From Eubacteriales bacterium (lineage in GTDB: Bacteria > Bacillota > Clostridia > Oscillospirales > CAG-272): a stretch of DNA of 24,000 nucleotides. Within the stretch, counting starts at the first letter, position 1, and each line of letters begins with the position of its first letter. The notes under the pieces were generated by a model. That model saw only the letters and a list, made by a program, of their open reading frames with translations. It ran no database searches and was not told the origin of the DNA. The stretch spans positions 8,872-32,871 of the forward strand of contig JAZRLQ010000163.1 of the NCBI GenBank assembly GCA_045646925.1. The letters run 5' to 3'. Shown here one piece after another: positions 2 to 22,506 of this stretch. A program made the position numbers and the translations under genes.

Positions 2-3000
2 CTTATTTTGGCGACAAGAGACGATAAGGGCAAAATTACAAGTGCTACCTTTGTGGACGGTACTCAAGCGACCGTTACCATAGATACTGACGTGGATGAA
101 AACATCACTGTATATACAGTCAGCGACGGTAATGGAAATTCTTGGACGAATTTCTTTGTCCGCGAGGTCTTCTTTACCACGGATGGTACGTCTGAAATCA
201 AGTATACAACGCCTGCGGGCAGCAACGTTTATGCTTGCGAAATGTTGGGCAATAAATATAACGGTCAGCCCCTCTGGAAATATTCAGCGGGAGGTAAGGG
301 TATTTGGCACTACGGTATCCGCGTAAATGAGAACGTGACTGTTGAGAATGGCGTTACCAGTGATTCGAGCTATGTGCTGGAAGACAGCACAGTTGCTTTC
401 TTTGATGGTAACAAGATCTATACTACGGCTGATGGTACGGAAAATGGTGAGATCAAAGAATTTTGGTACAGTTTCTTTGTTACAAAAACCGTGACGACAA
501 AAACCAAAGACAAAGATGGTAAGGTTTCTGAAACGAAAGAATATTCCCATTTCATGTATGATTTTTCGACGGATCCTGTTAACACATGGAATGTAACTCT
601 CTTCGAGCATAAGCCTTTGACTCTGATCGAAGCATACGGCGAAAACCAAAAAACGCATAATTCGGAGCTTCTTTGCGTGCAGTGGCAGATGCCGACCGCG
701 CAGGGCGAGGTTGCTTCCGGTCTTTACTACTTCTATGACGGTGTCTTCACCTTCGGTCTTTCCAGCCCTAATGATACCGTTCGCGATACTTGGAGAAACG
801 ATGCCGCGTCGAAACTCTATCTCGGTCCCGATACTCCTGACGGTTGGACGGTCGACGAAGATCGAGGCGATAGAGCTTTGATTGCATTGCTGAAGCCCAT
901 TACTAACAATAAAGATCTGAATGACGCGATCGTGAGCGGCAAGCAGTTTTATATTTCCGCGCAGCCTGTGGCAGGTGAAGCATATTTCATGTCTTTGAAT
1001 ACTCTCAATGATTCTAAGGATTTTGTTGTTGGCAATGAGAAGTACGAATCTAAAGATACGCCCGGTCAGATCCCGAATACGAAGGTTTCCTTGGAAAATA
1101 ATTTGGCGTCGACTTTGGCACAAAATTATAAGAACGGTCTCTTTACAAAGATTCCGACAGTTCCGATTACGGGTGCCACGCAGGAAGTGAAGATGTCGGT
1201 TAGCTTGACAGATTTGGAGAACCCGGACTTTTGGGGAAACTATACGATTTTGAATATCGGTCGTACTTCGGAATCCTTGACATTAGCAAGTTTGAAACAG
1301 GAGTATAATATCGTTCCGACCAACGTTACTGAAAATGGACAAACGAAGTATTATTACTATCGTAACGATACCGGCGCTTACGTTGGTACAGCAAGCGGAA
1401 CCAATTCCATTGATTCAGATAATGCTGGAAAAATTCCCAATTACGTAGAGTACGACGAGTACATCTATTATACCGTGGATTATGTGATTCCGGATGATGG
1501 TTATACATTTGGTTCGATTTCCGGAACAAGATATGAGGATATAAGGATTTATACCTTCACGTTCTGGTATCAACCTCCTGATAAAGCAGCTCCTGTTCCA
1601 CTTGGTTATACCACTGTGAAGGTTGACGCATATACACAGAATACTGGCCAAAACCCAAGCTATGTAAGTTATATGCCGGATTTTCATTATGGTATGGTAT
1701 ATTTTGGACAAGAAGAACCGAGCAATGATACAAACCAAACGGATCCGAGTTTTTTCTATAGACAAACTAGATTTGACGGAAATAATCATACGCTTCAGGA
1801 GAATGGTGATGGCTTGCTTGCGACCATTACTCCGGTAACACAAACAACTACCGGTTCGGGTTGGAATCCACAAACCACTACCACCTACGCGCCCAATAAC
1901 AATGGCGATTATGTTTTTAATCTTAGCTATCCCGATGAAGGCATTGATGCCACGAACATACCTATGGTCAATATTACAGCCAATCGCTTCCACGGAGATC
2001 GATATGATAAGAATAACAAAACCAGTACCAATGATACAGCAATTGCCGACCAAGCAATTGTGAGTGAAGGCTTTGTTTCCAAGGAAGTGGCGAACACTTG
2101 GGTGGAATATTATTATTATGACGTGACGACCAAAAACTATTATTACTATGATAATGGTTGGAAGAACAATGGCACGGTTGAACCGGAAAGAACCACTGTA
2201 AATGAAAATGGCGAAACGGTAAAGCAGGGGTTGGTGGGTGCCAATGCAGTTCTCATGAACCGTTATCCCGCATACACGTTTGCAAGTAATAATGCGGAAA
2301 GCCCTTCTTATCTTCAGTTTTTACATCAGTTTGCCGATTGGAACTATTGGTTTGGTTATCACGGCGACACTTATTCGCTTTGGGCAGGTACTGAGGCTCA
2401 GTACGAAGAATTGGATTTGAGAAAAGGTAGTACGACGGTTAGTTTTAAGAATACGGGAAATAATTGGAATCCTTATTATACGGACTATAAATTCGAACAG
2501 GTTTTTCAGTGGCTCACGGAGGGTGTTCTTGTCTTTGAGTCCGGTAAGGATTATTGCTATATTCAGTTTACCTATGACAGGCAGAATTTGGACATTTGGT
2601 ACCAAGGTCAAGAGAATGCTTTGGTAAACGGTGGCGACTATTTGGGTAACGGCGGAGAACTTGTTGGATATAGAGAACCCACCAAATCCGATCATAGTTT
2701 GACACAATACGTTGGCTATAATTATAATTCCTCGACCGAAACTTTGGAATATACGCTCAGCGCGACGAAGACGGAGAATACGCGACTTTACGTTTACGTT
2801 ATCGAGGGTATTTTGGATACTACTGCCGGCGTCAATACCTTCATCCCCGAAGATGTTAGAGAAGAAAATAGCAATACACACGCGTTGGACGCAAGTCAAT
2901 ACGTTTTGTGGCCGCAGAAAACCTTGACGCAGACCGGCTATAACACCAACACCGGTTACGATTTTGCAAAAAAGACCGTTTCCGCCTTGACGAGTGTTGA

Positions 3001-4261
3001 CAGTGGCGATGTTCATGCGAGATTGACTTCCTCGGAGGATCCTGTTTACAGTGCGCTTCCTTTGTACGGACCAAATAATACCGGTTTGAACTGGGGTAAT
3101 AGTGAGGGCTATATACTCGGCAGCTCAGGAACATATGGTTTGAATCAAAAATTCCAGATGGCAGACCAGGGCTTCTTTGGTAAACTGCATATTGACGAAA
3201 ACGGCTACGTCAGCTCGGTAACAGGCGGAAAATCCAATATGATGATCGTTCCCGTTGGCTCGAACAATGTGGAATCGCCCATCCCGAAGGGTTGCGTTGC
3301 ATTCAGCGTCAATGCTCAGAGTACGCAGACCATCCGTATCATCGTTTCGGTTCCGACGTCTGAGTATTATCTCCGTGAAAACGAAGCTTTGGATCCCATG
3401 GATCTTTTGAATGACTATTATGTTGGCGTTTGGAAGATCCCGTCGATCACTCCGGGCTCTGAGGTTACGTTTAAAAAATCCGAAGCGATTGAAAAATTCG
3501 AGCTTCCTCGTTCGTATTCGTTCAGCTTTGACGATGATCCTTCCAAGGTCGAGAAAAACGGAGAAAAACATTATATCAACGTTATATACGACGCCGATGG
3601 TGACGGTACATATGACGTTGAGTATGATGAAAATGGTAATATTATAGTTGAGCAATCCCCCGAATATTATCGTACGTATTTGAACGGCGATACCTTCCTC
3701 GTGGCATACGAGTTTACCATTCAAGGTGCTGGAACTGGTGGTACCTATATCATCGGTACTGCTCATGGCGCAGACGGTGTTACGGGCGGAAAGGATATCC
3801 CGATGGAGATCGTTCACTTCTCCGTTTCCGGTACTGCTTCCGCAGGACGTGACGGTGTTCAGGGTAACCAGCTTGGTGCGATCGACTTCGTATACGATAA
3901 TACGCAGGGTGCTATCGTTACCATTGATACCCGTGCGAAGGACGGTCAGACCACTCTGCCCAATGCTGACGGTAACGAGAACTATCAGAATTACTATTCT
4001 TCGCAGACCTTGCTCTATACAGATCTTGAACAGAAGGATTCCCAGACATATCTCAATCTCAACCAAGTTGAACTATATATTCGACGATGGTTGGATTCGA
4101 CGAGAACGGATACTTCTACGACTTATCAATCGAAGATTTCGTATTATATCGGTTCGGATGCTGCTACGAGTCAAGCTGGTCTGATAAAGTTTAAGAAGTA
4201 TTTGGATAACGGTGACGTACACGATCCTCTGACCGCAGAGCCGGGTGTATCGGGCAGTTGA
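2..4261 (+). CDS. Giant secreted/surface protein, 5'-truncated at the window edge (at least 1417 aa); no catalytic domain recognised
   Basis: The ORF is uninterrupted and stays open to the window edge (no stop in codons 2-7). The first residues have no signal peptide, so the true start is probably upstream. T/N/Y/G/D-rich composition is typical of beta-rich extracellular proteins. Aromatic motifs (KYYYYRNDTGAYVGT, VEYYYYD, NYYYYDNGW) loosely resemble cell-wall/glucan-binding repeats. DADGDGTYDVEYDENGN is an acidic Ca-binding-like loop. No LPXTG at the C-terminus. The next gene follows after 45 nt with its own RBS. Confidence 0.75.
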   Translation, partial: LILATRDDKGKITSATFVDGTQATVTIDTDVDENITVYTVSDGNGNSWTNFFVREVFFTTDGTSEIKYTTPAGSNVYACEMLGNKYNGQPLWKYSAGGKGIWHYGIRVNENVTVENGVTSDSSYVLEDSTVAFFDGNKIYTTADGTENGEIKEFWYSFFVTKTVTTKTKDKDGKVSETKEYSHFMYDFSTDPVNTWNVTLFEHKPLTLIEAYGENQKTHNSELLCVQWQMPTAQGEVASGLYYFYDGVFTFGLSSPNDTVRDTWRNDAASKLYLGPDTPDGWTVDEDRGDRALIALLKPITNNKDLNDAIVSGKQFYISAQPVAGEAYFMSLNTLNDSKDFVVGNEKYESKDTPGQIPNTKVSLENNLASTLAQNYKNGLFTKIPTVPITGATQEVKMSVSLTDLENPDFWGNYTILNIGRTSESLTLASLKQEYNIVPTNVTENGQTKYYYYRNDTGAYVGTASGTNSIDSDNAGKIPNYVEYDEYIYYTVDYVIPDDGYTFGSISGTRYEDIRIYTFTFWYQPPDKAAPVPLGYTTVKVDAYTQNTGQNPSYVSYMPDFHYGMVYFGQEEPSNDTNQTDPSFFYRQTRFDGNNHTLQENGDGLLATITPVTQTTTGSGWNPQTTTTYAPNNNGDYVFNLSYPDEGIDATNIPMVNITANRFHGDRYDKNNKTSTNDTAIADQAIVSEGFVSKEVANTWVEYYYYDVTTKNYYYYDNGWKNNGTVEPERTTVNENGETVKQGLVGANAVLMNRYPAYTFASNNAESPSYLQFLHQFADWNYWFGYHGDTYSLWAGTEAQYEELDLRKGSTTVSFKNTGNNWNPYYTDYKFEQVFQWLTEGVLVFESGKDYCYIQFTYDRQNLDIWYQGQENALVNGGDYLGNGGELVGYREPTKSDHSLTQYVGYNYNSSTETLEYTLSATKTENTRLYVYVIEGILDTTAGVNTFIPEDVREENSNTHALDASQYVLWPQKTLTQTGYNTNTGYDFAKKTVSALTSVDSGDVHARLTSSEDPVYSALPLYGPNNTGLNWGNSEGYILGSSGTYGLNQKFQMADQGFFGKLHIDENGYVSSVTGGKSNMMIVPVGSNNVESPIPKGCVAFSVNAQSTQTIRIIVSVPTSEYYLRENEALDPMDLLNDYYVGVWKIPSITPGSEVTFKKSEAIEKFELPRSYSFSFDDDPSKVEKNGEKHYINVIYDADGDGTYDVEYDENGNIIVEQSPEYYRTYLNGDTFLVAYEFTIQGAGTGGTYIIGTAHGADGVTGGKDIPMEIVHFSVSGTASAGRDGVQGNQLGAIDFVYDNTQGAIVTIDTRAKDGQTTLPNADGNENYQNYYSSQTLLYTDLEQKDSQTYLNLNQVELYIRRWLDSTRTDTSTTYQSKISYYIGSDAATSQAGLIKFKKYLDNGDVHDPLTAEPGVSGS

Positions 4262-4306: not shown

Positions 4307-5068
4307 ATGAAAAATAAGCTGACCAAAAGCAATTTAATAATAGCGCAAAGAGGCGTATCTCTCGTAGTCGTCTTCGCTACGCTTTTGACCGCGTTCGTCG
4401 CGATCGCTCCGTGGACGTACGGCTGGTTCGCCAAAAACAACAAGGTCACCGCAAGCGGTATGCATACGCAGGCGTACTATTCGAGATTTGACGTGACTTA
4501 CGCCGTCAAACAAGATGGTGAATATAAACCTGCCGAACCGAACGCTTTGTTCAATACGATCATTGCTCCCGGTTACTCGGCAGAAATTCAGATCACCATC
4601 ACGAATAAGTCGAGCAACAAGTATGCGGTCAACCTCACGGGCTTCGGTCTGGAAGCACCGACTGCTGATCAGGAGATTGCCAAAGTCGACTCTGCCGGAA
4701 AGATTCGCTATCTCAGCACCGAGCTTACTACAGAACTTCTTGGTGTGACGGTGGCATATCCGAGCACAAATACGAATACGCCTCCGGCTTATAGCGTAAC
4801 AATGCAGTCCGTTCCTGTACAACTTCGCGAAGGTACTTCCACAGAGCCGGGCGCAGCGGGACGCATTGACTATGTTCGGTATGTGAAGGATGTTGAAACT
4901 ACTCCGATTTCTGTTCCCGTTGGTGGTAGCGTGACCTTTACGATCCGCGTGACTTTCAAAAATACCGACTACGACCAGAATATCTATAAGGATTTTGCCG
5001 GCACGGGCGGTAAATGCGAAAGAAAGTTCTTCTTCACCTTTGAAGATGATATGAGTACATCTAATTAA
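4307..5068 (+). CDS. TasA/camelysin-like secreted protein with a SipW-type signal peptide (candidate matrix-fibre subunit)
   Basis: RBS AAAGGAGA lies 5 nt before the ATG. The N-terminus has a basic stretch and a hydrophobic core, then APWTYGWFAKNNKVTASGM. This resembles the T-x-A-x-F-x-D...N-x-F-x-x-G region of B. subtilis TasA and B. cereus CalY signal peptides as I recall them. LFNTIIAPGYSAEIQITITNKSS resembles the PGD...v.N.G strand of that family. Two SipW-type peptidase genes lie downstream. Confidence 0.6.
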   Translation: MKNKLTKSNLIIAQRGVSLVVVFATLLTAFVAIAPWTYGWFAKNNKVTASGMHTQAYYSRFDVTYAVKQDGEYKPAEPNALFNTIIAPGYSAEIQITITNKSSNKYAVNLTGFGLEAPTADQEIAKVDSAGKIRYLSTELTTELLGVTVAYPSTNTNTPPAYSVTMQSVPVQLREGTSTEPGAAGRIDYVRYVKDVETTPISVPVGGSVTFTIRVTFKNTDYDQNIYKDFAGTGGKCERKFFFTFEDDMSTSN

Positions 5069-5115
5069 ATTTTAAAAGTTTCTTTGAAAATACAGAGTTT
5101 TTCTTAGCATCTAAC

Positions 5116-5144
5116 TTGACTGGATATTGTATCTATGTTATAAT
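5116..5144 (+). promoter_or_regulatory. Sigma-A type promoter with extended -10
   Basis: TTGACT (5116-5121), exactly 17 nt spacer, TATAAT (5139-5144), preceded by TG at 5136-5137 (TGtTATAAT). It sits in the 314-nt gap between the tasA-like and sipW genes. The predicted TSS near 5151 leaves a leader of about 230 nt. Confidence 0.6.
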
Positions 5145-5170
5145 ATCGTTGTATTGTTTGTAATTTTATA

Positions 5171-5240
5171 TTCAGCAAAATAGTCGCAAGGCTATGACGC
5201 AAAGCTATAGGGACTTTGATCAAGTTAGCCAGTTGCAAGT
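5171..5240 (+). promoter_or_regulatory. Candidate c-di-GMP-I (GEMM-I) riboswitch aptamer
   Basis: GCAAAA (5175-5180) is followed by hairpin TAGTC-GCAA-GGCTA (5181-5194, GNRA loop) and then GACGCAAAGC (5196-5205). The second helix is GCTA(5204-5207)/TAGC(5226-5229) plus ACTT(5213-5216)/AAGT(5222-5225). The 3' strand is TAGCCAGTTGC (5226-5236). From memory, V. cholerae Vc2 reads GGCAAA-CCAUUC-GAAA-GAGUGG-GACGCAAAGCC...UAGCGGGGUUACC. Not verified with a covariance model. Confidence 0.6.
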
Positions 5241-5270
5241 TTTTTACCTTCGCACTGGCTGATTTTGTTG
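5227..5270 (+). terminator. Intrinsic terminator-like hairpin forming the riboswitch expression platform
   Basis: AGCCAGT (5227-5233) pairs with ACTGGCT (5254-5260). The stem is extended by GCAAG (5235-5239) pairing with CTT-c-GC (5248-5253). GATTTTGTTGTG follows. The 5' arm reuses the 3' strand of the proposed aptamer, so the two folds are mutually exclusive. Confidence 0.55.
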
Positions 5271-5382
5271 TGAAATCGGTTAGTGTGAATAACGCGAAGC
5301 AATCCCGAGCGTCAAACAAAACAATAATTCAATTTATTACTGAAAACGAAAGGCATTGTTTCGTGGAAGAGAGGTTTTATTT

Positions 5383-6096
5383 ATGGAAAAAGTAAAAAAA
5401 ATAGGGGGAATTGTCGGTAATACGATTATTTGGCTTTTTGTTGCCTTTTCCCTTGCAATCACCATTATGGTGTTTTCCGCTCAGCAGAGCTCGGACGGCA
5501 TTCCCGCCCTGTTCGGCAAGAGTATGCTCACCATCCAGACACCCTCGATGAAAGAGACTTACGACGTTGGCGACATGGTCTTCATGACGAAGCTCACCGA
5601 CGAAGACAAATATGAGCTGAAGGTGGGCGATATCATTACGTATCACGCGCCCATCGATATTGACCAGGACGGTCTGACGGGGGATATCAATACGCACCGT
5701 ATTTACTCCATCGATTCTGCGACGGGTCTCATTGTGACGAAGGGTGATGGCAATCTGATCCCCGATAATTACACGATCCACCGCAATGACGTTATCGGTA
5801 TTTGCACCGAGAACGGCAAACTTGACGGTGTTGGCAGCGTGGTTGAATTTCTCCGCTCCCGTATCGGATTTTTCGTTTGCATTGTATTGCCCTTGATTCT
5901 TTTCTTTGTTTTTGAACTCTATAACTTTATTACGATCCTTGCTTCCGAAAGAGCGAAGAAGGCTCCCATCGCAAAGGAGACCGAAGAAGAGATCAAACGC
6001 CGCGCGATCGAAGAATATATCAAGAGCCAGCAGGCTGCACAGGAAGCGGCTGCAGAAAAAGAAACTCCCGCCGATGAGAATTCTGCGGAGAAATAA
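5383..6096 (+). CDS. sipW: Signal peptidase I, SipW/archaeal-ER type (S26B), paralogue 1
   Basis: ATG at 5383 follows GGAAGAGAGG; the track's TTG at 5356 has no RBS. N-terminal TM helix, then QTPSMKET (catalytic Ser), INTHRIYS (His), TKGDGNLIPD, a C-terminal TM helix and an acidic/K-rich tail. The layout matches B. subtilis SipW (SGSMEP...THRIV...KGDNN) as I recall it. Confidence 0.85.
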   Translation: MEKVKKIGGIVGNTIIWLFVAFSLAITIMVFSAQQSSDGIPALFGKSMLTIQTPSMKETYDVGDMVFMTKLTDEDKYELKVGDIITYHAPIDIDQDGLTGDINTHRIYSIDSATGLIVTKGDGNLIPDNYTIHRNDVIGICTENGKLDGVGSVVEFLRSRIGFFVCIVLPLILFFVFELYNFITILASERAKKAPIAKETEEEIKRRAIEEYIKSQQAAQEAAAEKETPADENSAEK

Positions 6097-6127
6097 ACTA
6101 ATTTTTAGAAAGGACCGGTGATACGGA

Positions 6128-7687
6128 ATGGAAGGCTTTTTTGATTGGTTTTTTGCATTCTTGACAACAATGATCGACGGAATTTGGATGATTTTCTCCG
6201 GTATTTTCCGTGGCATCTTCCAGATTTTCAACGTCGTCAACTATTTCGAACTGTTTAAGAGTTATAAGGGCGGTTTTACCGCGATCGACTGGATCCTTGC
6301 AGTCATCAGCTTGTTTATGGTGCTTGCGATCCTTGGTATTCTTGTTTATCTCGCGGTTATCGGTATCAGAAAGTATATCAGATTCCGCAAATCCGCAGTT
6401 AACAACGAGGACCTTCTCGAAGAGCTTGCAACGCTCCACAGAGACGTTCTCAAGCTCACAAAAGAAAGAGAGAAGCTTCTTGCGCTCAAGATCGGTCAGA
6501 CCGATATTTCCATTAGCGACCTCAACGCTATTCTCTCTGATGGCGGTGACGAAGATGGTTATTCTGAAACCGACGACGGACGCGCAGATCTCGATGGAAG
6601 TGAGAATTTGCCTCGTTTCTTTAAACTCGATGCAATCGACCAGAAATATCTCAACTATGAAGCTCCCGAATACAGAACGGACTTCACACTGTATGACCTC
6701 TGCCGCGATTTCAGAAACTTCTGCTGCTCTCGCATGGGTCTTTACTATGAAGAAAAGGTCACCAGACTTATTTTCGCAGGTCTCGCTTCCACGAAGCTCA
6801 TTCTTTTGCAGGGTATTTCCGGTACCGGTAAAACATCTCTGCCTTACGCAATGGGTAAGTTCTTCCAGAAGGACGCGACCATCGTTTCCGTTCAGCCTTC
6901 CTGGCGTGACCGTACCGAGCTTTTCGGTTACTTCAACGAATTCTCGAAGCGCTTCAACGAAACCGACCTTCTCCGCCGCGTTTACGACGCTTCCTACAAC
7001 GATGATATCAACGTTATCATCCTCGACGAAATGAATATCGCCCGCGTCGAATACTATTTCGCGGAAATGCTTTCCATCATGGAAATGCCCGACCCCAGAG
7101 AATGGAAGATCGAACTCGTTCCTTCCTCCTGGGATAATGACCCCCAGAACCTCAAAGACGGTAAGCTTCTCATTCCTCAGAATACTTGGTACATCGGTAC
7201 GGCGAACAACGACGACTCGACCTTCTCGATCTCCGATAAGGTTTACGACCGTGCGCTTACCATCAATATCGATAATAAGGGTATGCCTTTCGAAGCTCCC
7301 GATACACCTCCGTCTCTCATCAGCTATTCCTCCGTCAACGCTCTCTACCAGAAGGCGATCGAGGATTATCCCGTTGACGAGCGTTACCTCCAGATGATCG
7401 AGGCGCTCGACACCTACGTTATCAAGAAATTCAGAGTTGCATTCGGTAACCGTATTATCAAGCAGCTTAAGATCTTCGTGCCCGTTTACGTTGCCTGCGG
7501 CGGTACTGCCGTTGAAGGTATCGACCATATCCTCGCTACCAAGGTCTTCAGAAAGTTTGAAATGCTCAACCTCTCTCTCATCAGAGACGAGATCAAGGGT
7601 CTTATCAACTATCTCAACACCATGTTCGGTAAGGATGCAATGAAGGAATGTATCGAATTCCTTGAAAGATTGCAGCGCACGTATTAA
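6128..7687 (+). CDS. Membrane-anchored McrB-like AAA+ GTPase (2 predicted TM helices, coiled coil, AAA_5/McrB-type core)
   Basis: Walker A is GISGTGKTS. VQPSWRDRTELFGYFN resembles McrB vqFH.sysYEDFi.Gy. Walker B and following residues VIILDEMNIARVEYYFAEMLSIME resemble McrB LDEINRA....FGEl..llE. YIGTANNDDST resembles the McrB iGTMNTADRS (NxxD) signature. The N-terminus has two hydrophobic helices (FFAFLTTMIDGIWMIFSGIF and WILAVISLFMVLAILGILVYLAVIGI), then a heptad-like EDLLEELATLHRDVLKLTKEREKLLALK. Confidence 0.8.
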   Translation: MEGFFDWFFAFLTTMIDGIWMIFSGIFRGIFQIFNVVNYFELFKSYKGGFTAIDWILAVISLFMVLAILGILVYLAVIGIRKYIRFRKSAVNNEDLLEELATLHRDVLKLTKEREKLLALKIGQTDISISDLNAILSDGGDEDGYSETDDGRADLDGSENLPRFFKLDAIDQKYLNYEAPEYRTDFTLYDLCRDFRNFCCSRMGLYYEEKVTRLIFAGLASTKLILLQGISGTGKTSLPYAMGKFFQKDATIVSVQPSWRDRTELFGYFNEFSKRFNETDLLRRVYDASYNDDINVIILDEMNIARVEYYFAEMLSIMEMPDPREWKIELVPSSWDNDPQNLKDGKLLIPQNTWYIGTANNDDSTFSISDKVYDRALTINIDNKGMPFEAPDTPPSLISYSSVNALYQKAIEDYPVDERYLQMIEALDTYVIKKFRVAFGNRIIKQLKIFVPVYVACGGTAVEGIDHILATKVFRKFEMLNLSLIRDEIKGLINYLNTMFGKDAMKECIEFLERLQRTY

Positions 7688-7730
7688 TTTTTAAATTCTA
7701 AAGAAAAAAGTCGCAAGGGAGGACCTTTCT

Positions 7731-9539
7731 TTGAATAACAATTACGAAAATTTCAGAGCCAAAGTGTTCTCCGCAATGAGAGGACTGGCAAATGATTGCC
7801 CGGAGTTTTCCGATGCGGAAATGCTGGTTGCGTCTTCTGAAGTCGATGCAACTTTAAAAAGAAGCACCGTACACAAAAATATTGATACCGAATGGGTCAG
7901 CAGAATCGAAGAAACGATCCCGTATCTCGATCTGATTGTTCGTAACCCCACGATCATGATCGAGGACATCGAAGAGATTCTTCCCGTCGAGCTTTCCCGC
8001 AGCGTTACGGAAAAGACTGTCAAGCATTTGGCTCAACATACCAATATGATCCTTACCATCACGGAGAAGGACGAGGTTATTCCTCAGAAGCTGCTCAACG
8101 TATATCATGAAGAGACGCTTCTTACATATGAAAACAAGTTCATCAATACGCTCCTCGCGCGCCTCACGGCGTTCGTTGATAAGCGTTATAAGCTGCTGCG
8201 CGGCGGACACGGAACTGAAAGAAATTATCAGTTCCGTTACTCCACGGAGTTCGATCACTTCGCTGACGAATATTCCGGGCGCAACACGGCGCAGATCAAG
8301 CTTTCCATCGACCTGACCTCCCCCGTGACAGAGGGACTCACCGAAGCGGAGCTTGAAGCAAACGAGAGATATATTTCGACGATGGAGCGCATTGAAAAGA
8401 TCAGTAATACGCTCACTTCCTATATGTCTTCTCCTTACATCAAGGCGCTGGGCAGAAACTATATCCGCCCGCCCGTGATCAGAACCAACGCGATTCTCAA
8501 GAATAAGAACATGAAGGTGTGTCTGAATCTTTGGGAATACATTGAGGGCTTTGACAAAGCCGGATATTCTTTCATCAACGACGAATATACGGAAATGCCC
8601 TCCGACAACTACATCTCCGATTTCTACTCCACCGTGGCTCTCCAGTACACCGATTTCTATAACGGCGTTGCGGAAAACGCGGAGGCAAACAGAATGCTCG
8701 CGAAGCGCCACATTTCCAATGTGGAACCCGATTTCTCTGCGGATTTCGACGTAGAGGAAATCAACGATTACGAGGTCTTCGACTCGGAATACAAGAAGAT
8801 GGTTCCGGTTTCCCGTTTGGCAAATGATGGTTCTCAACTTTCTGAGGACGAGTGCCGTGTAGGTGTTGCTGTTCTTGTTGCTTTAAAGGCTGATGAAATT
8901 CTTTTTGCGCCTATTCTTGCACAAGAAGCTGAAGAAAGAAGAATCGCAAGAGAAAAACGACTCGCTGAAGAAGAAGCAAAGAGACGTGCCGAAGAAGAAG
9001 CAAGAAGACGCGCCGAGGAAGAAGCAATTCGTCTTGCGGAAGAAGAAGCGAGACGTGCTGAAGAAGAACGACTCAGAAAGATTGCCGAGGAAGAAGCGAG
9101 AAGACGCGCCGAGGAAGAAGCAAGAATTCGCGCTGAAGAAGAAGCAAGAAGACTTGCAATTGAAAGAGAAGAGGAAGCAAGAAGACTTGCTGCCGAAAAA
9201 GAAGAAGCGAGACGTCTTGCGGAAGAAGCTGAAAAATATGGCTTTATCTTCCCTGATTCCAAGGATACATATAATGGAAAATCTATCGTTCTTCCGTATA
9301 CGAGAGAGCAGTATCTTGCTTTCCCGAGAAAGAAGAAAAAGAGCGTCCTCATGGATGTTAAGAAAATCAATTCTTATCATGAAAATTTGGAAGCGCTTGA
9401 ACTCCTTAAATCCAAAAATACTAATAATCCCAATGTGAAAGAACGTATCAGACTTCTTGAAAATCAGTTGAATGAAGAGTACAAGACTCTTCCGAAGGGT
9501 CAGCTTTGGGATTCTTGTATCCGTAAAGTGAAAAAATGA
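7731..9539 (+). CDS. Soluble 602-aa partner of the McrB-like ATPase (McrC position); N-terminal globular region, ~105-aa E/R/A helix, small basic C-terminal domain
   Basis: TTG start lies 8 nt after GGGAGG (7717-7722). No TM helix or signal peptide. TYENKFINTLLARL and NMKVCLNLWEYIEGF loosely recall the ENR...LFE.FV helical motifs of McrC-family proteins (from memory, unverified). I cannot find a convincing PD-(D/E)xK core. Residues ~398-502 are EEEARRRA-type repeats. The stop overlaps the next gene's start (ATGA at 9536-9539). Confidence 0.7.
   Translation: MNNNYENFRAKVFSAMRGLANDCPEFSDAEMLVASSEVDATLKRSTVHKNIDTEWVSRIEETIPYLDLIVRNPTIMIEDIEEILPVELSRSVTEKTVKHLAQHTNMILTITEKDEVIPQKLLNVYHEETLLTYENKFINTLLARLTAFVDKRYKLLRGGHGTERNYQFRYSTEFDHFADEYSGRNTAQIKLSIDLTSPVTEGLTEAELEANERYISTMERIEKISNTLTSYMSSPYIKALGRNYIRPPVIRTNAILKNKNMKVCLNLWEYIEGFDKAGYSFINDEYTEMPSDNYISDFYSTVALQYTDFYNGVAENAEANRMLAKRHISNVEPDFSADFDVEEINDYEVFDSEYKKMVPVSRLANDGSQLSEDECRVGVAVLVALKADEILFAPILAQEAEERRIAREKRLAEEEAKRRAEEEARRRAEEEAIRLAEEEARRAEEERLRKIAEEEARRRAEEEARIRAEEEARRLAIEREEEARRLAAEKEEARRLAEEAEKYGFIFPDSKDTYNGKSIVLPYTREQYLAFPRKKKKSVLMDVKKINSYHENLEALELLKSKNTNNPNVKERIRLLENQLNEEYKTLPKGQLWDSCIRKVKK
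8922..9236 (+). repeat. In-frame imperfect tandem repeat (about 24-nt / 8-aa period) encoding an E/R/A-rich helix
   Basis: The translation is QEAEERRIAREKRLAEEEAKRRAEEEARRRAEEEAIRLAEEEARRAEEERLRKIAEEEARRRAEEEARIRAEEEARRLAIEREEEARRLAAEKEEARRLAEEAEK. The 40-mers at 8988-9027 and 9084-9123 differ at 2 of 40 positions by my alignment, with an offset of 96 nt (4 x 24). Confidence 0.85.
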
Positions 9540-10126
9540 TTCAATTAAAAAAAATATCGGGTGTTCTCAAAATTGCGGCGACAATTTTTTGGTGGATCGC
9601 TACGGTTGCCATTGTCGTTTTGATCTGTATAATCATGGGTGCGAAGATAAAAGGTAAGGTTCCTTATCTCTTCGGTTACTCTGTGATGAATATTATCAGC
9701 GGCAGCATGGAGGATAGAATTCCTGCGGGAACCTATATTCTGATCAAAAAAACCGACGCGGCCGATATACAAAAGGGTGATATTATCTGTTTTTATTCAG
9801 ATGACCCTCGTATCCAAGGATATCCGAATACACATACTGTGATTGAAGATCCGATTCACGGTGAGAACGGAATCGAATTCATCACAAAGGGCGATGCGAA
9901 CCTCGTAAAAGATGATTATACCGCCAAGGGTGATAAATTGATAGGGAAATATGTGAAAAACCTCGACGGTTTGACGCGCTTTTCCCAATCACTCCAAGGT
10001 AACGCCATATTCTTCTGTTATATGATTTTAATGGGAATGTGTGTGATTTTTATGGTGGTTCCTGTATTCATAAAGGTTTTATCAAAAGATTCGGACGATG
10101 AAAATGCAAAGGATCAGCAGACTTGA
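9536..10126 (+). CDS. sipW: Signal peptidase I, SipW/archaeal-ER type (S26B), paralogue 2
   Basis: The ATG overlaps the upstream stop (ATGA). N-terminal TM helix, SGSMEDRIP (catalytic Ser), PNTHTVIE (His), TKGDANLVKDD, and a C-terminal TM helix (IFFCYMILMGMCVIFMVVPVFI). Confidence 0.85.
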   Translation: MIQLKKISGVLKIAATIFWWIATVAIVVLICIIMGAKIKGKVPYLFGYSVMNIISGSMEDRIPAGTYILIKKTDAADIQKGDIICFYSDDPRIQGYPNTHTVIEDPIHGENGIEFITKGDANLVKDDYTAKGDKLIGKYVKNLDGLTRFSQSLQGNAIFFCYMILMGMCVIFMVVPVFIKVLSKDSDDENAKDQQT

Positions 10127-10167
10127 TCCATTGGAGAGATGACTAAATGAAAGGATGAAAAATAGAT

Positions 10168-12444
10168 ATGGCCGATAAAACCAAAATAAAAAAACTGATG
10201 AAACATGCTGGAAAGATTTCCATCATTATAGCAGTGCTTTTTCTTACCTTTTATTTGATTACGATTATTACGAAATCGTCGGAATTTTATGCTGAATCCA
10301 CTGTGAAGAATGCTAAAATTTCTTTTGATAAGGATATGAACAATGTTTCCGCGTTGGTAGAGGAGCATTATGAAAATCTCTATGAGGTTGTCGATCATGT
10401 GAGTTATGCGAAAACAACGGAAGAAGTTATTGCAATCATGACTTCGTACATTGGCAGTGAACAGTTTGGTGATCTTCGTTATTATTCAAAAGGCGTGGCT
10501 TATGCTGCTACCGGTGCAATCATAGGCGATGATGTGAGCGGTCATGAGATGATCAAAGAACTTGCTCAAGGCAATAAGGCTGGTTGTACAGACGTATATC
10601 GAGATGGAAACGTGAAAATGGATTGCATTGCGTTCTTTATTCCCGTTCGCGGTTCTGAAGTTATCGATGGAATTGTCTCCGTTGTGCCGGCACGTAATAT
10701 TATTCAAGTTAGCGATATTATGCAGGATGAAACCTCTATGGTTGCTATTGTAGGGGCAAAGGGAAATATCTATGCGCGTAAGTTCGCAGAGAATTTTACG
10801 ACTGACGTAGGTGAAAACGTATATGATTTCCTTGAAGATTTTACCGCTAGTAAGACGATGGCGGATAATGTCAGAGGCGTGCTTAACGCCAAAGAGCTTT
10901 CTACGACAGAGATTCAGTCTGCGGGTGTTGATTATACAATTGTTGCGGAGCCGATCGAATCTTTTGACGGTTATCTGCATTTGATTACTATTAGCAAAAG
11001 CAATGATTTGATTATGACGGAGATTAGCTATATCCGTCACATAGTCAGTATTTTGTTGCTTGCGATCATCGGCTTCATTGTCGGTCTCGTGTTCGTATTC
11101 CTTTTCCAGAAAAAAGCAAAGGATGCGGTGATGACCGCAAACCTCAAGGATGCAGAGCTTGAATGTGCCAATATTGAGGGCTTCAGAAGAGCAGCTCTCA
11201 ATCTTTCTCACGGAAGCGATAAGCGTTACGCAGTCTGCGTATCCTCCATCCGCCAGTTCCATTTTGTCAAGGATAAATTCGGCGCGGATGCTTCCGATAA
11301 GCTTTTGAAATTTATTGCTCAGGTCTACAAGACCTTCTGTAACAAAAATGAAACCTTCGGTTATGCAGGTGACGGCAAGTTCCTGCTCTTTGCGGAATAC
11401 GCTTCCGAATCTGCATTCCGTGATAAACTGATGGTTCTTGAAAATATCGTTAATCAGCACGAGCTTCTCATGCAAAATCGCGTGAAGATCCGCTTCGCAA
11501 CGGGTATTTGTCTCGGCTTCGGACAGAAGAAACGTACGATCTCCGAAATGATCGACTGCGCTACCATCGTGTGCGAGGACGCGAAGAACGACGTTGCAAC
11601 GCCTTACGTGATCTACGTTGAAAACGTACGCGAAAAGATCAACCGCAGCGAACAGATCGAAGCGCAGATGGAGCACGCGTTGGATAACAACGAATTCAGA
11701 CTTTTCCTCCAGCCGAAATATAACGTTGCAACCGACTCGATTGACAGCGCGGAAGCGCTCGTCCGTTGGTTCGATCACCGCAAGGGCGATTATATTTACC
11801 CCGTAGAATTTATCGGTCTCTTTGAGACGAACGGCTTTATCGTGAAGATGGACCATTTCATCTATCTCGAGGTATTGAAATACATCAGCGAAGCGAGAGA
11901 GAAAAACGAGAAGATCGTTCCGATCTCCGTCAACGTTTCCCGCGTTACTGCAAGTAAAGACGATTTCGTTAACTTCTACGTAGGCAACAAGAGAAAGTAT
12001 ATGATCGACGACGATCTGATCAAGCTTGAATTTACCGAGACCTTCGCGGTTGAGGACTACACGAAGCTCGCAGAGATCGTAAAACAGCTTCAAGAGGGCG
12101 GTATCCGTTGCTCTATCGACGACTTCGGTGTCGGCTATTCTTCCTTCCGCGTTCTGAAGGAGCTTACGATGGACGAATTGAAGCTTGACCGCGTATTCCT
12201 TTCTAAAGGCGTCGACGTTCAGCGTGACGAAAAGATCATTTCCACCATCGTTTCCTTGGCGAATGAAATGGGAATGACCGTCGTTCAGGAGGGTGTCGAA
12301 ACCAAGGAAATGTTTGACCGCGTTTCCCGTTTGGGTATCAACGTCATTCAGGGTTATTACTACGCGAAGGCGATTCCTCTGGAAGAGTTCAAGATCTTCA
12401 TCAAGAGTAATACGTCCATCCGTTATAAATCCATCGTTAAATAA
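10168..12444 (+). CDS. Membrane sensor protein: extracytoplasmic Cache-like domain between two TM helices, degenerate GGDEF, intact EAL (predicted c-di-GMP phosphodiesterase)
   Basis: TM1 is ISIIIAVLFLTFYLITIIT. An extracytoplasmic region of about 270 aa precedes TM2 (VSILLLAIIGFIVGLVFVFLF). The GGDEF position reads YAGDGKF, so the motif is degenerate. EAL hallmarks are all present: EFRLFLQPKY, AEALVRW, FETNG, SVNVS, LEFTET, IDDFGVGYSS, KLDRVF, VQEGVET, IQGYYYAKA. Confidence 0.9.
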   Translation: MADKTKIKKLMKHAGKISIIIAVLFLTFYLITIITKSSEFYAESTVKNAKISFDKDMNNVSALVEEHYENLYEVVDHVSYAKTTEEVIAIMTSYIGSEQFGDLRYYSKGVAYAATGAIIGDDVSGHEMIKELAQGNKAGCTDVYRDGNVKMDCIAFFIPVRGSEVIDGIVSVVPARNIIQVSDIMQDETSMVAIVGAKGNIYARKFAENFTTDVGENVYDFLEDFTASKTMADNVRGVLNAKELSTTEIQSAGVDYTIVAEPIESFDGYLHLITISKSNDLIMTEISYIRHIVSILLLAIIGFIVGLVFVFLFQKKAKDAVMTANLKDAELECANIEGFRRAALNLSHGSDKRYAVCVSSIRQFHFVKDKFGADASDKLLKFIAQVYKTFCNKNETFGYAGDGKFLLFAEYASESAFRDKLMVLENIVNQHELLMQNRVKIRFATGICLGFGQKKRTISEMIDCATIVCEDAKNDVATPYVIYVENVREKINRSEQIEAQMEHALDNNEFRLFLQPKYNVATDSIDSAEALVRWFDHRKGDYIYPVEFIGLFETNGFIVKMDHFIYLEVLKYISEAREKNEKIVPISVNVSRVTASKDDFVNFYVGNKRKYMIDDDLIKLEFTETFAVEDYTKLAEIVKQLQEGGIRCSIDDFGVGYSSFRVLKELTMDELKLDRVFLSKGVDVQRDEKIISTIVSLANEMGMTVVQEGVETKEMFDRVSRLGINVIQGYYYAKAIPLEEFKIFIKSNTSIRYKSIVK

Positions 12445-12591: not shown

Positions 12592-12620
12592 TTGACAACA
12601 GACTATAAAAATGCTATAAT
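12592..12620 (+). promoter_or_regulatory. Consensus sigma-A promoter with extended -10
   Basis: TTGACA (12592-12597), 17-nt spacer, TGcTATAAT (12612-12620). It lies 37 nt upstream of the ATG at 12657. Confidence 0.7.
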
Positions 12621-12656
12621 AGGTTCAACAGTTAATCTTGATGGGGAAGAACATCC

Positions 12657-13226
12657 ATGTTGATTTTTATTTTGATTCCCTTGCTTATCGCTTATTTCAA
12701 GGGCTATCGCGTGTTGTCACTGTTCCGCGTTTTTGATATGTATCCGTTTTTCGCGGTATGTCTCGTTCACGGATTTTTCGTGATGAATGCGTGGTTTGGT
12801 AATTACAGCTTCGTGAAATATGCATCCATTTTGCAATATTTCATGATCGTTTCCTTGCTCCTTCCCGTTGTGCGCCGTCGATTTTTCGCTCCGACGCTGA
12901 TTGGCGTCGGTTTGACTATGCTCGGAACCGTGATGAATAAGATCGTCATCCATGCCAACGACGGAAAGATGCCTGTGTATCCCACTGTTTCCAAGTGGAT
13001 CGGGTATTACAAGGACGGACAGCTGGACGGCACGATCGACGAGCTGCATATCTTGATGGATGGTTCCTCGATGCTTCCTTTTTTGGCGGATTATTTTGAT
13101 TTTGGCTTATGCATTCTGAGTCCGGGCGACCTTCTCATTCATGCGTTTGCATCCATCATCATCTTTTATACCGTAAAATCCGTATGTCCGAAAGACAAGC
13201 GCGGGAAAGAAGCCGAGTTGATGTAA
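12657..13226 (+). CDS. Small polytopic membrane protein, DUF5317-like
   Basis: Four to five hydrophobic helices. NKIVIHANDGKMPVY and ILSPGDLLIHAF match my recollection of the conserved aNgG.MPV and S.GD.li motifs of DUF5317. This family assignment is from memory and unverified. Confidence 0.6.
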   Translation: MLIFILIPLLIAYFKGYRVLSLFRVFDMYPFFAVCLVHGFFVMNAWFGNYSFVKYASILQYFMIVSLLLPVVRRRFFAPTLIGVGLTMLGTVMNKIVIHANDGKMPVYPTVSKWIGYYKDGQLDGTIDELHILMDGSSMLPFLADYFDFGLCILSPGDLLIHAFASIIIFYTVKSVCPKDKRGKEAELM

Positions 13227-13245
13227 GGAAAGGCGGTTTTATTTC

Positions 13246-13785
13246 ATGTTGGAATACGTATATCTCTTTATAACCGATATTTTGCTTGGTTATTTTCCAC
13301 AGGCGGCGGGATGCGCGATCTGCTTGTTCGCAATCACGAATCAGGACATTCGTTCCCGTAAATTCATATATACTTCGTGTATCTATTCTCTGATCGCAAT
13401 GGTGATCCGATTTGCTTATAATCTTTCGCTCATTGATTTTGGATTCCATACCATCGTCATCTGGATGATATTCATCGTCGTTGCGATCGGATATTGCAGA
13501 TTTTCCGTCATGCAGTCCACACTCAGTATCTTGCTCTCGGGTATTATTATCGCTATTGCTGAGATCTTGACCGGACTCATTTTCGTTCTCGTGATCGGAA
13601 ACGACGCGTTCAATGAGATCATGAATAATACGAAGACGGTCGAAGGAAAGCTCATGAAATCGATCTGCGGTATCCCCGCAAATCTCTTCTTCCTCTTCGT
13701 CGTCATTGTTCTCTACTTCTTTATGAAAAAGAAAAGACAAAAATCTGCCGAAAAGACAAATGAATCAGCAGAAGTGACCGTTTGA
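13246..13785 (+). CDS. Polytopic membrane protein (about 5-6 TM helices), family unknown
   Basis: RBS AAGGAAAGG precedes the ATG. The protein is hydrophobic throughout and ends in a basic tail (KKKRQKSAEK). It sits 31 nt upstream of agrB on the same strand. Confidence 0.7.
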   Translation: MLEYVYLFITDILLGYFPQAAGCAICLFAITNQDIRSRKFIYTSCIYSLIAMVIRFAYNLSLIDFGFHTIVIWMIFIVVAIGYCRFSVMQSTLSILLSGIIIAIAEILTGLIFVLVIGNDAFNEIMNNTKTVEGKLMKSICGIPANLFFLFVVIVLYFFMKKKRQKSAEKTNESAEVTV

Positions 13786-13816
13786 TCGCGTCCGTTATGC
13801 TGAAGAAAGAAATGTT

Positions 13817-14455
13817 ATGGAACGTTTAGCGAAAAAAATCGCAAAATCCGTTGGCGAATCGCTTGGAAAAACAGAGGAGGAGGTCGCCGTCATCGCGTAC
13901 GGTTTGATCGGTATCCTTCAATTTTCCGCGATATTTCTCGTCGCGTCAGTAATCGGAATTATTTTCGGTTTCTGGCTTGAGGTGTTGACGGTATTCTTAT
14001 CCGTCGGCTTCCTGCGCCGCTTCACCGGAGGCGCGCATTCTTCGGGTTTGTACAGTTGTCTTTTTTACAGTGTTATTTTCGTTTGTGGGATCTCCTCGCT
14101 TGCGCATTACGTCTTGTCTGCGTTGCCGTTTGCAGCGAATTGCATTTTGTGCGGACTGATCTTCTCGTTCGGCTATCTGATGGTTGCGCTCAAAGCGCCG
14201 GTCGCTCCGCCCAACAAGCCCTGCCGCTCCGAAGCAAAACGCAAAAGACTGCGCAAGGGCGCGTTCATAGCGCTTTCGGCTTTTTTGATCTTCGTCGCGT
14301 TGACCGTCATTTTCAAGGATTCGGCGCCGAGACTTTATACGATCGGTTTGGCTCTTTCATTGTCAACGCTTTGGCAAATTGCCATGATGACGAAGGTCGG
14401 ACATATATTCATTACCTTTATTGACGGTATATTTATGAAAAAAGAAAGTCAGTAA
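13817..14455 (+). CDS. agrB: AgrB-family membrane cysteine endopeptidase (autoinducing-peptide maturation)
   Basis: LRRFTGGAHSSGLYSC carries the G-G-x-H motif with a Cys exactly 7 residues after the His. This is the same spacing as catalytic H77/C84 of S. aureus AgrB. The protein is polytopic with a basic loop (KPCRSEAKRKRLRKG) and is followed by an AgrD-like ORF. Confidence 0.85.
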   Translation: MERLAKKIAKSVGESLGKTEEEVAVIAYGLIGILQFSAIFLVASVIGIIFGFWLEVLTVFLSVGFLRRFTGGAHSSGLYSCLFYSVIFVCGISSLAHYVLSALPFAANCILCGLIFSFGYLMVALKAPVAPPNKPCRSEAKRKRLRKGAFIALSAFLIFVALTVIFKDSAPRLYTIGLALSLSTLWQIAMMTKVGHIFITFIDGIFMKKESQ

Positions 14456-14532
14456 AATTTTCCCTTTTGGTATCATCTCGCCTTTGACGGCGGATAGATA
14501 TAAAAAAATTCGGGAGAAAGGAGGCTTTTGAT

Positions 14533-14658
14533 ATGAAAGCCAAAATTCTGATGTCGATTTCTGTAATCGCTACCATGTTTGCAGCATTTGCGGCTTCTTC
14601 GGCCTGCTTCTGGTGGATCTATCAGCCCGAAGAACCCGCATCCTTGCAGGACAAGTAA
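14533..14658 (+). CDS. agrD: AgrD-like autoinducing peptide precursor (41 aa; predicted thiolactone ring CFWWI)
   Basis: Not in the ORF track. RBS GGAGAAAGGAGG ends 8 nt before the ATG. My translation is MKAKILMSISVIATMFAAFAASSACFWWIYQPEEPASLQDK. It has an amphipathic N-terminal helix, a Cys plus 4 residues, then an acidic YQPEEP..L tail. C. perfringens AgrD, as I recall it, ends ...TSACLWFTHQPEEPKSLRDE with ring CLWFT. Confidence 0.85.
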   Translation: MKAKILMSISVIATMFAAFAASSACFWWIYQPEEPASLQDK

Positions 14659-14671
14659 TGCAGGGTTGCGA

Positions 14672-14705
14672 ACGAGAGCCGAGAGAGCTCGGCTCTCGTT
14701 TTTCT
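14672..14705 (+). terminator. Rho-independent terminator after agrD
   Basis: ACGAGAGCCGAG (14672-14683), loop AGAG, CTCGGCTCTCGT (14688-14699), then TTTTTCT. Confidence 0.8.
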
Positions 14706-16400: not shown

Positions 16401-16424
16401 CACATTTTATTTAAGAAACGAGAA

Positions 16425-16464
16425 CTTCCTTGTGAGCCGTCAACGGCTTGTAAGGGAGTTTTTT
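16425..16464 (+). terminator. Rho-independent terminator
   Basis: 15-bp stem CTTCCTTGTGAGCCG (16425-16439) pairing with CGGCTTGTAAGGGAG (16444-16458), including four G-U pairs. Loop TCAA, then TTTTTT. Confidence 0.8.
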
Positions 16465-16497
16465 GTTTACGCGGCAATTCGTCATTGGATTTTATTC

Positions 16498-16526
16498 TTG
16501 ACAAATACTGCGGAAAATTTTATAAT
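16498..16526 (+). promoter_or_regulatory. Consensus sigma-A promoter
   Basis: TTGACA (16498-16503), 17-nt spacer, TATAAT (16521-16526). It lies inside the 5' end of the track ORF 16485-17519, which argues for a later start codon. Confidence 0.7.
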
Positions 16527-16562
16527 AAAAATATAATGATGAAATTGGAAAGGATCGTAACG

Positions 16563-17519: not shown

Positions 17520-17528
17520 GGGTGCGCC

Positions 17529-19243: not shown

Positions 19244-19245
19244 GC

Positions 19246-20541: not shown

Positions 20542-20551
20542 TGGATATCGA

Positions 20552-20580
20552 ATGACTCTCGGTTTTTCGGGAGTCATTTT
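20552..20580 (+). terminator. Possible weak intrinsic terminator
   Basis: ATGACTCTCG (20552-20561), loop GTTTTT, CGGGAGTCAT (20568-20577), then TTT. The T-tract is short, so termination may be only partial. Confidence 0.45.
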
Positions 20581-20594
20581 TGAAAGGATATTAT

Positions 20595-22387: not shown

Positions 22388-22425
22388 AAATTGTGAATTT
22401 TTTTGAAAAAATACGGTGAAAAAGA

Positions 22426-22453
22426 TTGCTTTTTGTGAAAATTATGGTATAAT
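22426..22453 (+). promoter_or_regulatory. Probable sigma-A promoter with extended -10
   Basis: TTGCTT (22426-22431), 16-nt spacer, TGgTATAAT (22445-22453). It lies 54 nt upstream of the GH31 start. Confidence 0.5.
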
Positions 22454-22467
22454 ACAGACAGAAAAAA

Positions 22468-22485
22468 CACTCTTCGCGAAGAGTG
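22468..22485 (+). promoter_or_regulatory. Perfect 18-nt palindrome just downstream of the -10 (candidate operator or 5'-UTR hairpin)
   Basis: CACTCTTCG|CGAAGAGTG is perfectly self-complementary. It starts 15 nt after the TATAAT and ends 21 nt before the GH31 ATG. Confidence 0.4.
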
Positions 22486-22506
22486 CGCTCTGAAAGGAAG
22501 CCGAAA

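Follow-up and report, generated by a model that had tools for sequence, protein, structure and literature searches.

The closest described relatives of the element treated here are the class I riboswitches for cyclic di-GMP (c-di-GMP), also called GEMM-I and collected in Rfam family RF01051, for which Vc2 of Vibrio cholerae is the reference. The element itself occupies positions 5116-5382 of a 24-kb stretch of DNA from a Eubacteriales bacterium, referred to below as the window, and lies directly upstream of a gene for a SipW-type signal peptidase. An experimental precedent for a class I transcriptional ON riboswitch exists in Bc2 of Bacillus thuringiensis (PMC11218506). Within the class, G20 (Vc2 numbering) recognises ligand base alpha, and an A is found at this place in GEMM-Ib RNAs, which sense cyclic GMP-AMP (cGAMP) (PMC6140456). 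The exchange A20G shifts the selectivity of a Geobacter riboswitch to c-di-GMP (PMC6456294). The G20A variant of Vc2 binds c-di-GMP at 53 nM and cGAMP at 120 nM, while Cbe 1-2, a natural A20 aptamer of Clostridium beijerinckii, binds them at 30 nM and 463 nM, respectively, and thus prefers c-di-GMP about 15-fold (PMC6140456). Judged by these affinities, an A at position 20 by itself does not confer cGAMP selectivity.

We consider it likely that 5116-5382 consists of a promoter and a class I c-di-GMP (GEMM-I) riboswitch acting as a transcriptional ON switch, a reading that had been put forward in an earlier note made from the bare letters of this DNA. The parts of the element are the following.

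5116-5144, + strand: sigma-70-type promoter (11/12 consensus matches plus TG)
5164-5240, + strand: c-di-GMP-I (GEMM-I) aptamer in its Rfam limits (RF01051), with the core A5174-C5236
5170-5173 with 5237-5240, + strand: short P1 helix, 5′ strand AUUC and 3′ strand AAGU (register analysis)
5174, + strand: equivalent of Vc2 G20, which contacts ligand base alpha; here A (unpaired model position 11)
5175-5200, + strand: first aptamer hairpin (G5175-C5200, C5176-G5199, inner helix 5180-5185/5190-5195)
5198, + strand: equivalent of C44, the conserved interhelical C (3 nucleotides before the A47 equivalent, as in Vc2 and Vc1)
5201, + strand: equivalent of A47, the adenine stacked between both ligand bases (first A after the GC pair in GACGCAAAGC)
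5203-5234, + strand: second aptamer hairpin (Rfam alignment)
5236, + strand: presumed equivalent of C92, the Watson-Crick partner of ligand base beta (model position 83)
5227-5271, + strand: hairpin resembling an intrinsic terminator, with U-rich tail (fold)
5293-5305 pairing with 5352-5365, + strand: long-range hairpin of the distal leader (computed folds)

In the entire 24-kb window, the only Rfam 15 match above the gathering threshold is that of RF01051 to 5164-5240 on the plus strand (52.9 bits against a threshold of 35, E-value 6e-8 over the window, model positions 1-87), and RF01051 is the best-scoring member of clan CL00126 for this region. A permissive search of 5050-5450 returned RF01051 again, at an E-value of 1e-9, with all other matches at chance level; the control family RF01786 (c-di-GMP-II) gave no match at E<=10 in this interval. 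A covariance model built in the present analysis (R1) assigns 83 bits to the aptamer. The family assignment of the earlier note is thus borne out, and the parts it had named are all found where it had placed them: GCAAAA at 5175-5180, the near-invariant core GACGCAAAGC at 5196-5205, the 3′ strand TAGCCAGTTGC at 5226-5236, and a second helix (5203-5206/5231-5234, 5210-5211/5229-5230 and 5212-5216/5222-5226). A GNRA hairpin with a 5-bp stem had also been described; the hairpin is present, with the tetraloop GCAA at 5186-5189 (GCGA or GAAA in relatives, GCAA or GCGA in the close ones), but its stem has 6 bp (AUAGUC/GGCUAU). We regard membership in the class I family as established.

The promoter upstream of the aptamer has the -35 element TTGACT at 5116-5121, a spacer of 17 nucleotides and the extended -10 element TGtTATAAT (hexamer at 5139-5144); TTGAC and TGnTATAAT are kept across six orthologous leaders. 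From it we infer a transcription start near 5151, which would give a leader of about 232 nucleotides up to the sipW ATG at 5383, in good agreement with the consensus promoter and the leader of about 230 nucleotides proposed before. A Shine-Dalgarno sequence, AAGAGAGG, lies at 5367-5374 ahead of this ATG.

Position 20 was mapped by the spacing to A47 reported for Vc2, Vc1 and Bc1. A5174 sits 27 nucleotides before A5201, exactly as for G20/A47 in Vc2, G12/A39 in Vc1 and G11/A38 in Bc1, and is therefore the G20 equivalent; it is unpaired and directly 5′ of the pair G5175-C5200. We take C5236, the first C after the second helix, to be the probable C92 equivalent, in part on the basis of the Vc2 structure. 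Of the Vc2 contact set G20/A47/C92, the latter two are thus present as A5201 and C5236, while position 20 is A and not G. G5228, which is located in an AG bulge, is the likely partner of C5198, as in the tertiary C44-G83 pair of Vc2, which is universally conserved. A5201, C5236, C5198 and G5228 are invariant among 28 related aptamers.

Relatives of the locus were gathered via the SipW protein, which yielded 80 loci from GTDB species genomes and 12 close metagenomic contigs (designated below by numbers such as L081). The 80 GTDB loci are all from uncultured Clostridia, Eubacteriales, Oscillospiraceae or Ruminococcus of gut and rumen. With a motif search and then a purpose-built covariance model, this aptamer type was located at 36 places. 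When 12 aptamer sites were tested with Rfam, 11 scored above the gathering threshold of RF01051 (50.5-64.3 bits) and one matched best as RF03167. Homologous leaders show covariation in the helices that the earlier note had proposed. Across the 28 related aptamers, standard pairs occupy 97% of the pair cells, compared with 26-37% when the partners are shifted by 1-3 columns. Changes on both sides are seen in seven pairs, among them all 6 of the inner helix of the first hairpin, and the observed covariation score was reached in 0 of 500 shuffles. Pair 50-71 of the second helix (alignment A2) occurs as GC, AU, UA and CG. One pair of the Rfam consensus is missing from the second helix, both in the window and in all 28 relatives.

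Selection was assessed on six orthologous sipW leaders. They agree at 97% of positions in the aptamer and 89% in the terminator, but at only 54% of the four-fold degenerate sites of sipW and 45% in the inner part of the distal leader. The difference from the four-fold sites indicates purifying selection on the element. Judged by these comparisons, the riboswitch element is real and structured, with both aptamer and terminator under purifying selection.

The stem of the terminator-like hairpin comprises 12 bp, in blocks of 7 (5227-5233/5254-5260), 2 (5235-5236/5252-5253) and 3 (5237-5239/5248-5250), and is closed by the loop 5240-5247 and followed by the U-rich tail GAUUUUGUUGU at 5261-5271. 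Its folding energy is -18.5 kcal/mol (z = -3.9 against shuffles). The segment 5227-5240 is used twice, in the aptamer as the 3′ strand of the second helix, the C92 position and the 3′ strand of P1, and in the terminator as the 5′ arm. This is the geometry noticed before, with the aptamer's 3′ strand (5227-5239) serving as the 5′ arm of a 12-bp hairpin followed by a U-rich tract, and the overlap is plainly present in the window. Of 29 non-redundant related aptamers, 25 have the same design, with AGCCAGYUGCA and the variable nucleotides behind it being complementary to a downstream segment that is directly followed by a run of at least 4 U. Between L006 and L007, a U-A pair linking the aptamer strand and the 3′ arm of the terminator is swapped to C-G, and in the close group the changes within the hairpin are wobble-compatible or improve the stem. 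In a permutation test, duplexes between a terminator's own arms were on average only slightly stronger than those between arms of different loci (-15.2 versus -13.6). The weakness of this difference is explained by the nearly invariant 5′ arm, and so the case rests on the recurring design and on specific swaps such as that between L006 and L007.

Conformer energies were computed over 5151-5275. The aptamer pairs alone give -11.4 kcal/mol and the best fold compatible with the aptamer -16.8 kcal/mol; the terminator together with the first hairpin reaches -22.4 kcal/mol, and the unconstrained minimum free energy (MFE) is -32 kcal/mol. As the terminator state is lower in energy, it should win unless ligand stabilises the aptamer. 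The ON logic suggested earlier gains support from the terminator 5′ arm being formed by the 3′ strands of the aptamer's P3 and P1, from the recurrence of this design and from purifying selection on the terminator. We infer that the hairpin terminates transcription and that the element most likely is a transcriptional ON switch working by anti-termination.

Transcription would begin near 5151, and the aptamer (core 5174-5236, P1 5170-5173/5237-5240) would fold during synthesis. Ligand binding would keep three segments within the aptamer, namely the 3′ strand of the second helix, C5236 and the P1 3′ strand. The hairpin 5227-5260 would thereby be blocked, and polymerase would continue past the U-rich tract (5263-5271) and transcribe the operon. 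In the unbound state, the same 3′ strand would pair with 5248-5260, and the hairpin with its U tract would end transcription near 5265-5271. Read-through would lead to expression of two SipW-type peptidases, an AAA protein, a DUF2357 protein and an EAL phosphodiesterase. By way of the phosphodiesterase, high c-di-GMP would induce its own degradation, which amounts to negative feedback. The co-induced machinery would probably process secreted TasA-like proteins, and the likely outcome is that surface or matrix proteins are processed or assembled in response to c-di-GMP.

Several observations weigh against a c-di-GMP-responsive anti-terminator at this position. P1 has merely 3-4 bp, with a C.A mismatch beside the binding site, so that affinity could be low. 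Its pairs are A5170-U5240, U5171.G5239 and U5172-A5238, with C5173.A5237 mismatched; the pair adjoining the binding site is C.A in the window and L081, C-G in L082 and L086, and U-A in L083 and L091. Register 0, with its 3-4 bp, is found only in the window's own group, no single register suits all 32 copies, and we consider P1 short and weakly supported. The A at the G20 position is a hallmark of the cGAMP-sensing GEMM-Ib RNAs. The U tract GAUUUUGUUGUG is imperfect, begins two bases past the stem and is broken by a G. A simple terminator scan of 4800-5700 flagged none, probably because the stem has bulges; in view of this and of the direct fold, we do not hold the negative scan against the hairpin. 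The 3′ arm of the terminator (5252-5265) can also pair with 5273-5285 (13 bp including G.U), which is favoured in the MFE fold of the full leader. Another 110 nucleotides of structured leader lie between the terminator and the start codon. Finally, three close relatives (L001, L089 and L090, SipW identity 73-76%) have kept the operon but have no sipW-proximal riboswitch, which indicates that this control is dispensable.

The A at position 5174 raises the question of the ligand. A GEMM-Ib-type riboswitch selective for 3′3′-cGAMP would have the same fold and the same anti-termination, with cGAMP read by A5174. It would fit the A20G conversion of the Geobacter RNA to c-di-GMP selectivity, and A20 is kept in every sipW-proximal copy among the close relatives. 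A20 alone is insufficient for this, as the affinities of Vc2 G20A and the preference of Cbe 1-2 make clear. Furthermore, both bases occur at position 20 in the distant orthologous leaders, A in L005, L006, L011, L017 and L019 and G in the others. L006 (A20) and L007 (G20) have otherwise near-identical aptamers, and copies with A20 (L005, L017) and with G20 (L009, L013) alike precede genes for stand-alone EAL proteins. The operon and its surroundings encode c-di-GMP enzymes, namely the EAL phosphodiesterase and, at 14742-16400, a GGEEF cyclase. Canonical and Hypr GGDEF enzymes are separated by an Asp or a Ser, respectively, at the position that reads the guanine, and this cyclase has the Asp (NDTHGH), not the Hypr Ser. 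No cGAMP synthase is visible within the window. Selectivity for cGAMP is therefore improbable in our view.

The EAL/GGEEF gene context, the occurrence of either A or G at position 20 before EAL genes and the preference of Cbe 1-2 favour c-di-GMP, which is most probably the physiological ligand. It is plausible that the aptamer binds both c-di-GMP and 3′3′-cGAMP in vitro owing to A5174. It seems rather unlikely that A20 makes the operon answer both c-di-GMP and 3′3′-cGAMP in these uncultured gut Clostridia, which would tie cGAMP to the cassette of SipW, AAA, DUF2357 and second SipW genes.

About as improbable as cGAMP selectivity is a genuine aptamer that works in another mode, either as an OFF switch or through translation or mRNA stability via the hairpins 5252-5285 and 5293-5365. 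The weak U tract and the negative terminator scan would fit such a mode, as would the full-leader MFE, in which 5252-5265/5273-5285 takes the place of the terminator. In stepwise folds, however, the terminator forms before 5273-5285 has been transcribed, and relatives that share the aptamer 3′ strand have canonical U runs right after the hairpin. The competing pairing of 5252-5285 is degraded in L081, L082 and L086. It was considered as a conserved switch element and rejected because of these disrupting changes, and it is probably incidental. The long-range hairpin 5293-5365 is conserved and stops one base short of the Shine-Dalgarno sequence, which would suit translational control. Its arms are 79% and 91% identical in the orthologous leaders, while its interior has the 45% identity given above and large indels (35-45 nucleotides); the 5′ arm of L091 has four one-sided changes, all of which keep the pairing, and the hairpin is without an Rfam match. 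Against translational control, the aptamer lies about 140 nucleotides from the ribosome-binding site and no complementarity between it and this site was found. A decaying or non-functional remnant, with the RF01051 match reflecting ancestry only, would account for the weak P1 with its C.A mismatch, the missing second-helix pair and the sister lineages that manage without the element, but is highly improbable given the identity of aptamer and terminator far above that of neutral-like sites, the intact contact nucleotides and the occurrence of the same missing pair in all 28 related, covarying aptamers. A transcriptional ON switch for c-di-GMP remains the reading that we prefer.

A sipW-proximal riboswitch is found in the window, in L081-L087 and in L091/L092, with SipW identities of 71-89%. 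In the three riboswitch-free relatives, the operon has a promoter of its own, followed by an unrelated leader of 250-300 nucleotides (L001 6694-7000; L089 7747-8030; L090). Alignment of the leaders of L001, L088 and L089 shows unrelated sequence and not a clean deletion. The leader of L088 (494-754) holds a run of N and is uninformative. In distant relatives, the aptamer stands before an EAL gene at the start of the gene cluster, and 3-6 kb separate it from sipW further downstream. In all 11 distant loci tested (L005, L009, L011, L013, L015, L016, L017, L021, L024, L025 and L029) the first gene after the aptamer codes for a stand-alone EAL protein of about 250-370 amino acids. Judged by this gene order, the predicted ON switch feeding a c-di-GMP phosphodiesterase is a recurrent arrangement across the group. 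The module of riboswitch and terminator appears to have moved within the gene cluster. Its position before EAL genes in distant relatives and before sipW here, together with its absence from sister lineages, hints that it may behave as a transferable regulatory module.

Tandem pairs of GEMM-I aptamers, 110-125 nucleotides apart, were also observed before EAL genes (L024 3313-3397/3428-3511; L029 4281-4356/4392-4467; L035 57-135/182-260). Most tandem copies have a terminator-like hairpin of their own. The first copy in L035 matches best as c-di-GMP-I-GGC (RF03167; 60.2 bits against a gathering threshold of 59).

The genes downstream of the riboswitch are the following.

5383-6096, + strand: SipW/archaeal-type S26 signal peptidase (TIGR02228, 64 bits against a cut-off of 51.85)
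6128-7687, + strand: weakly McrB-like AAA protein of 519 amino acids (marginal McrB similarity)
7731-9539, + strand: DUF2357 protein of 602 amino acids with a long coiled coil (borderline DUF2357, 23.9 bits against a cut-off of 23.3)
9536-10126, + strand: second SipW/archaeal-type S26 peptidase (TIGR02228, 74 bits against a cut-off of 51.85)
10168-12444, + strand: phosphodiesterase with degenerate GGDEF domain and EAL domain (Pfam and NCBIfam scans, motifs)

As the intergenic gaps in 5383-12444 do not exceed 43 nucleotides and the next strong promoter (12/12 matches) is at 12592-12620, these five genes probably form one operon. Their order is repeated in L081-L083, L086 and L091. The first SipW protein has 237 amino acids (246 from an upstream TTG start). 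In the phosphodiesterase, the GGDEF motif is degenerate (AGDGK), while the EAL motifs are intact (EALVRW, DDFGVGYSS, EGVET). Of the gene content named in the earlier note, the two signal peptidases and the EAL phosphodiesterase stand, but its label of an AAA+ pair with a McrB-like member has marginal backing. The AAA protein matches McrB of PDB 6hz4 with an E-value of 2.7e-4 and the NCBIfam McrB model with 20 bits against a cut-off of 637; its match to PADLOC PDC-M26A (7.7e-35) is local only. An AlphaFold2 model of the DUF2357 protein (predicted local distance difference test, pLDDT, 70; predicted template modelling score, pTM, 0.39) gave no PDB fold match at E<=0.001 with Foldseek, and no McrC-like or nuclease fold was seen in it. 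In a McrBC-type pair, a McrB-family AAA+ GTPase is joined by a McrC partner with a PD-(D/E)xK nuclease. Going by the model, the cassette formed by the first four genes bears little resemblance to a plain McrBC restriction system.

The cassette of the first four genes (5383-10126: SipW, AAA, a DUF2357 protein of 600-1050 amino acids, second SipW) was found in the same order in L001, L011, L024, L081-L083, L086 and L089-L091. We see in it a possible new machine that exports or assembles TasA-like surface fibres.

Immediately before the riboswitch, 4307-5068 codes for a protein of 253 amino acids which, by eye, has a TasA-like signal peptide of the SipW type (...APWTYGWFAKNNKVTASG). No similarity links it to the EAL proteins that are encoded first behind the riboswitch in the distant loci. 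It is preceded by an open reading frame (ORF) of 1417 codons (8-4261) that looks secreted, seems to be cut by the start of the window (homologues have 1483-1804 amino acids) and has no Pfam match. Although they are located upstream of the riboswitch, both proteins are likely substrates of the SipW peptidases.

The cyclase at 14742-16400 is a membrane protein with a canonical GGEEF domain fused to HD (HD_5). Between the operon and this gene lies an agr-like quorum-sensing module (12592-14698), behind the perfect consensus promoter at 12592-12620 and ended by a terminator-like hairpin at 14680-14698.

12657-13226: DUF5317 protein, followed by a protein of 179 amino acids
13817-14455: AgrB
14533-14658: AgrD-like peptide of 41 amino acids (...SSACFWWIYQPEEP...)

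Beyond roughly 16 kb, the G+C content rises from about 0.43-0.47 to about 0.51. The genes in 16000-24000 look unrelated to the cluster and include those for a MoxR-type AAA_3 ATPase, a GFO/IDH/MocA oxidoreductase and a GH43 glycosidase.

The locus adds little to riboswitch biology per se, and its value lies chiefly in annotation and context. A five-gene operon of an uncultured gut or rumen clostridial lineage is marked as predicted to be induced by c-di-GMP, with a predicted negative-feedback loop via the EAL phosphodiesterase. The predicted switch ties c-di-GMP to an uncharacterised cassette near genes for TasA-like secreted proteins, and this provides a lead for the biology of biofilms and fibres. 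As A and G naturally replace each other at position 20, the orthologous leaders make a handy test set for the weight of this nucleotide in the selectivity between c-di-GMP and cGAMP.

When the aptamer is compared with Vc2, the two hairpins, the GNRA tetraloop and the GACGCAAAGC core are alike, as are the equivalents of A47 and C92, the interhelical C-G pair and the 27-nucleotide spacing between position 20 and A47. It differs from Vc2 in having A instead of G at position 20, a very short P1, and one pair fewer in the second helix, which leaves an AUA bulge. The canonical 11-nucleotide tetraloop receptor was not recognised by eye in the window aptamer. Bc2 of the Bacillus thuringiensis/cereus group is likewise a class I aptamer of a Firmicute, and it raises downstream transcription at high c-di-GMP (PMC11218506). 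Host and regulated genes differ, however, and Bc2 has been tested in vivo while the riboswitch of the window is predicted from sequence.

The Geobacter GEMM-Ib RNAs (for example Gs1761/pgcA) and the bispecific Cbe 1-2 share with the window an A at the G20 position, and pgcA of Geobacter likewise combines ON control with a terminator (PMC6456294). Selectivity for cGAMP in a cGAMP-producing host marks the Geobacter RNAs, whereas the context in the window is wholly that of c-di-GMP (EAL, GGEEF). In view of this gene context and of the interchange of A and G between orthologues, the c-di-GMP-preferring Cbe 1-2 would be the closest functional analogue. Judged by these likenesses, the riboswitch at 5116-5382 is an ordinary further member of a well-known class and has a probable ON platform of the standard kind. 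Its mild twists are limited to A20, the variable placement within the gene cluster and the uncharacterised cassette that it is predicted to control.

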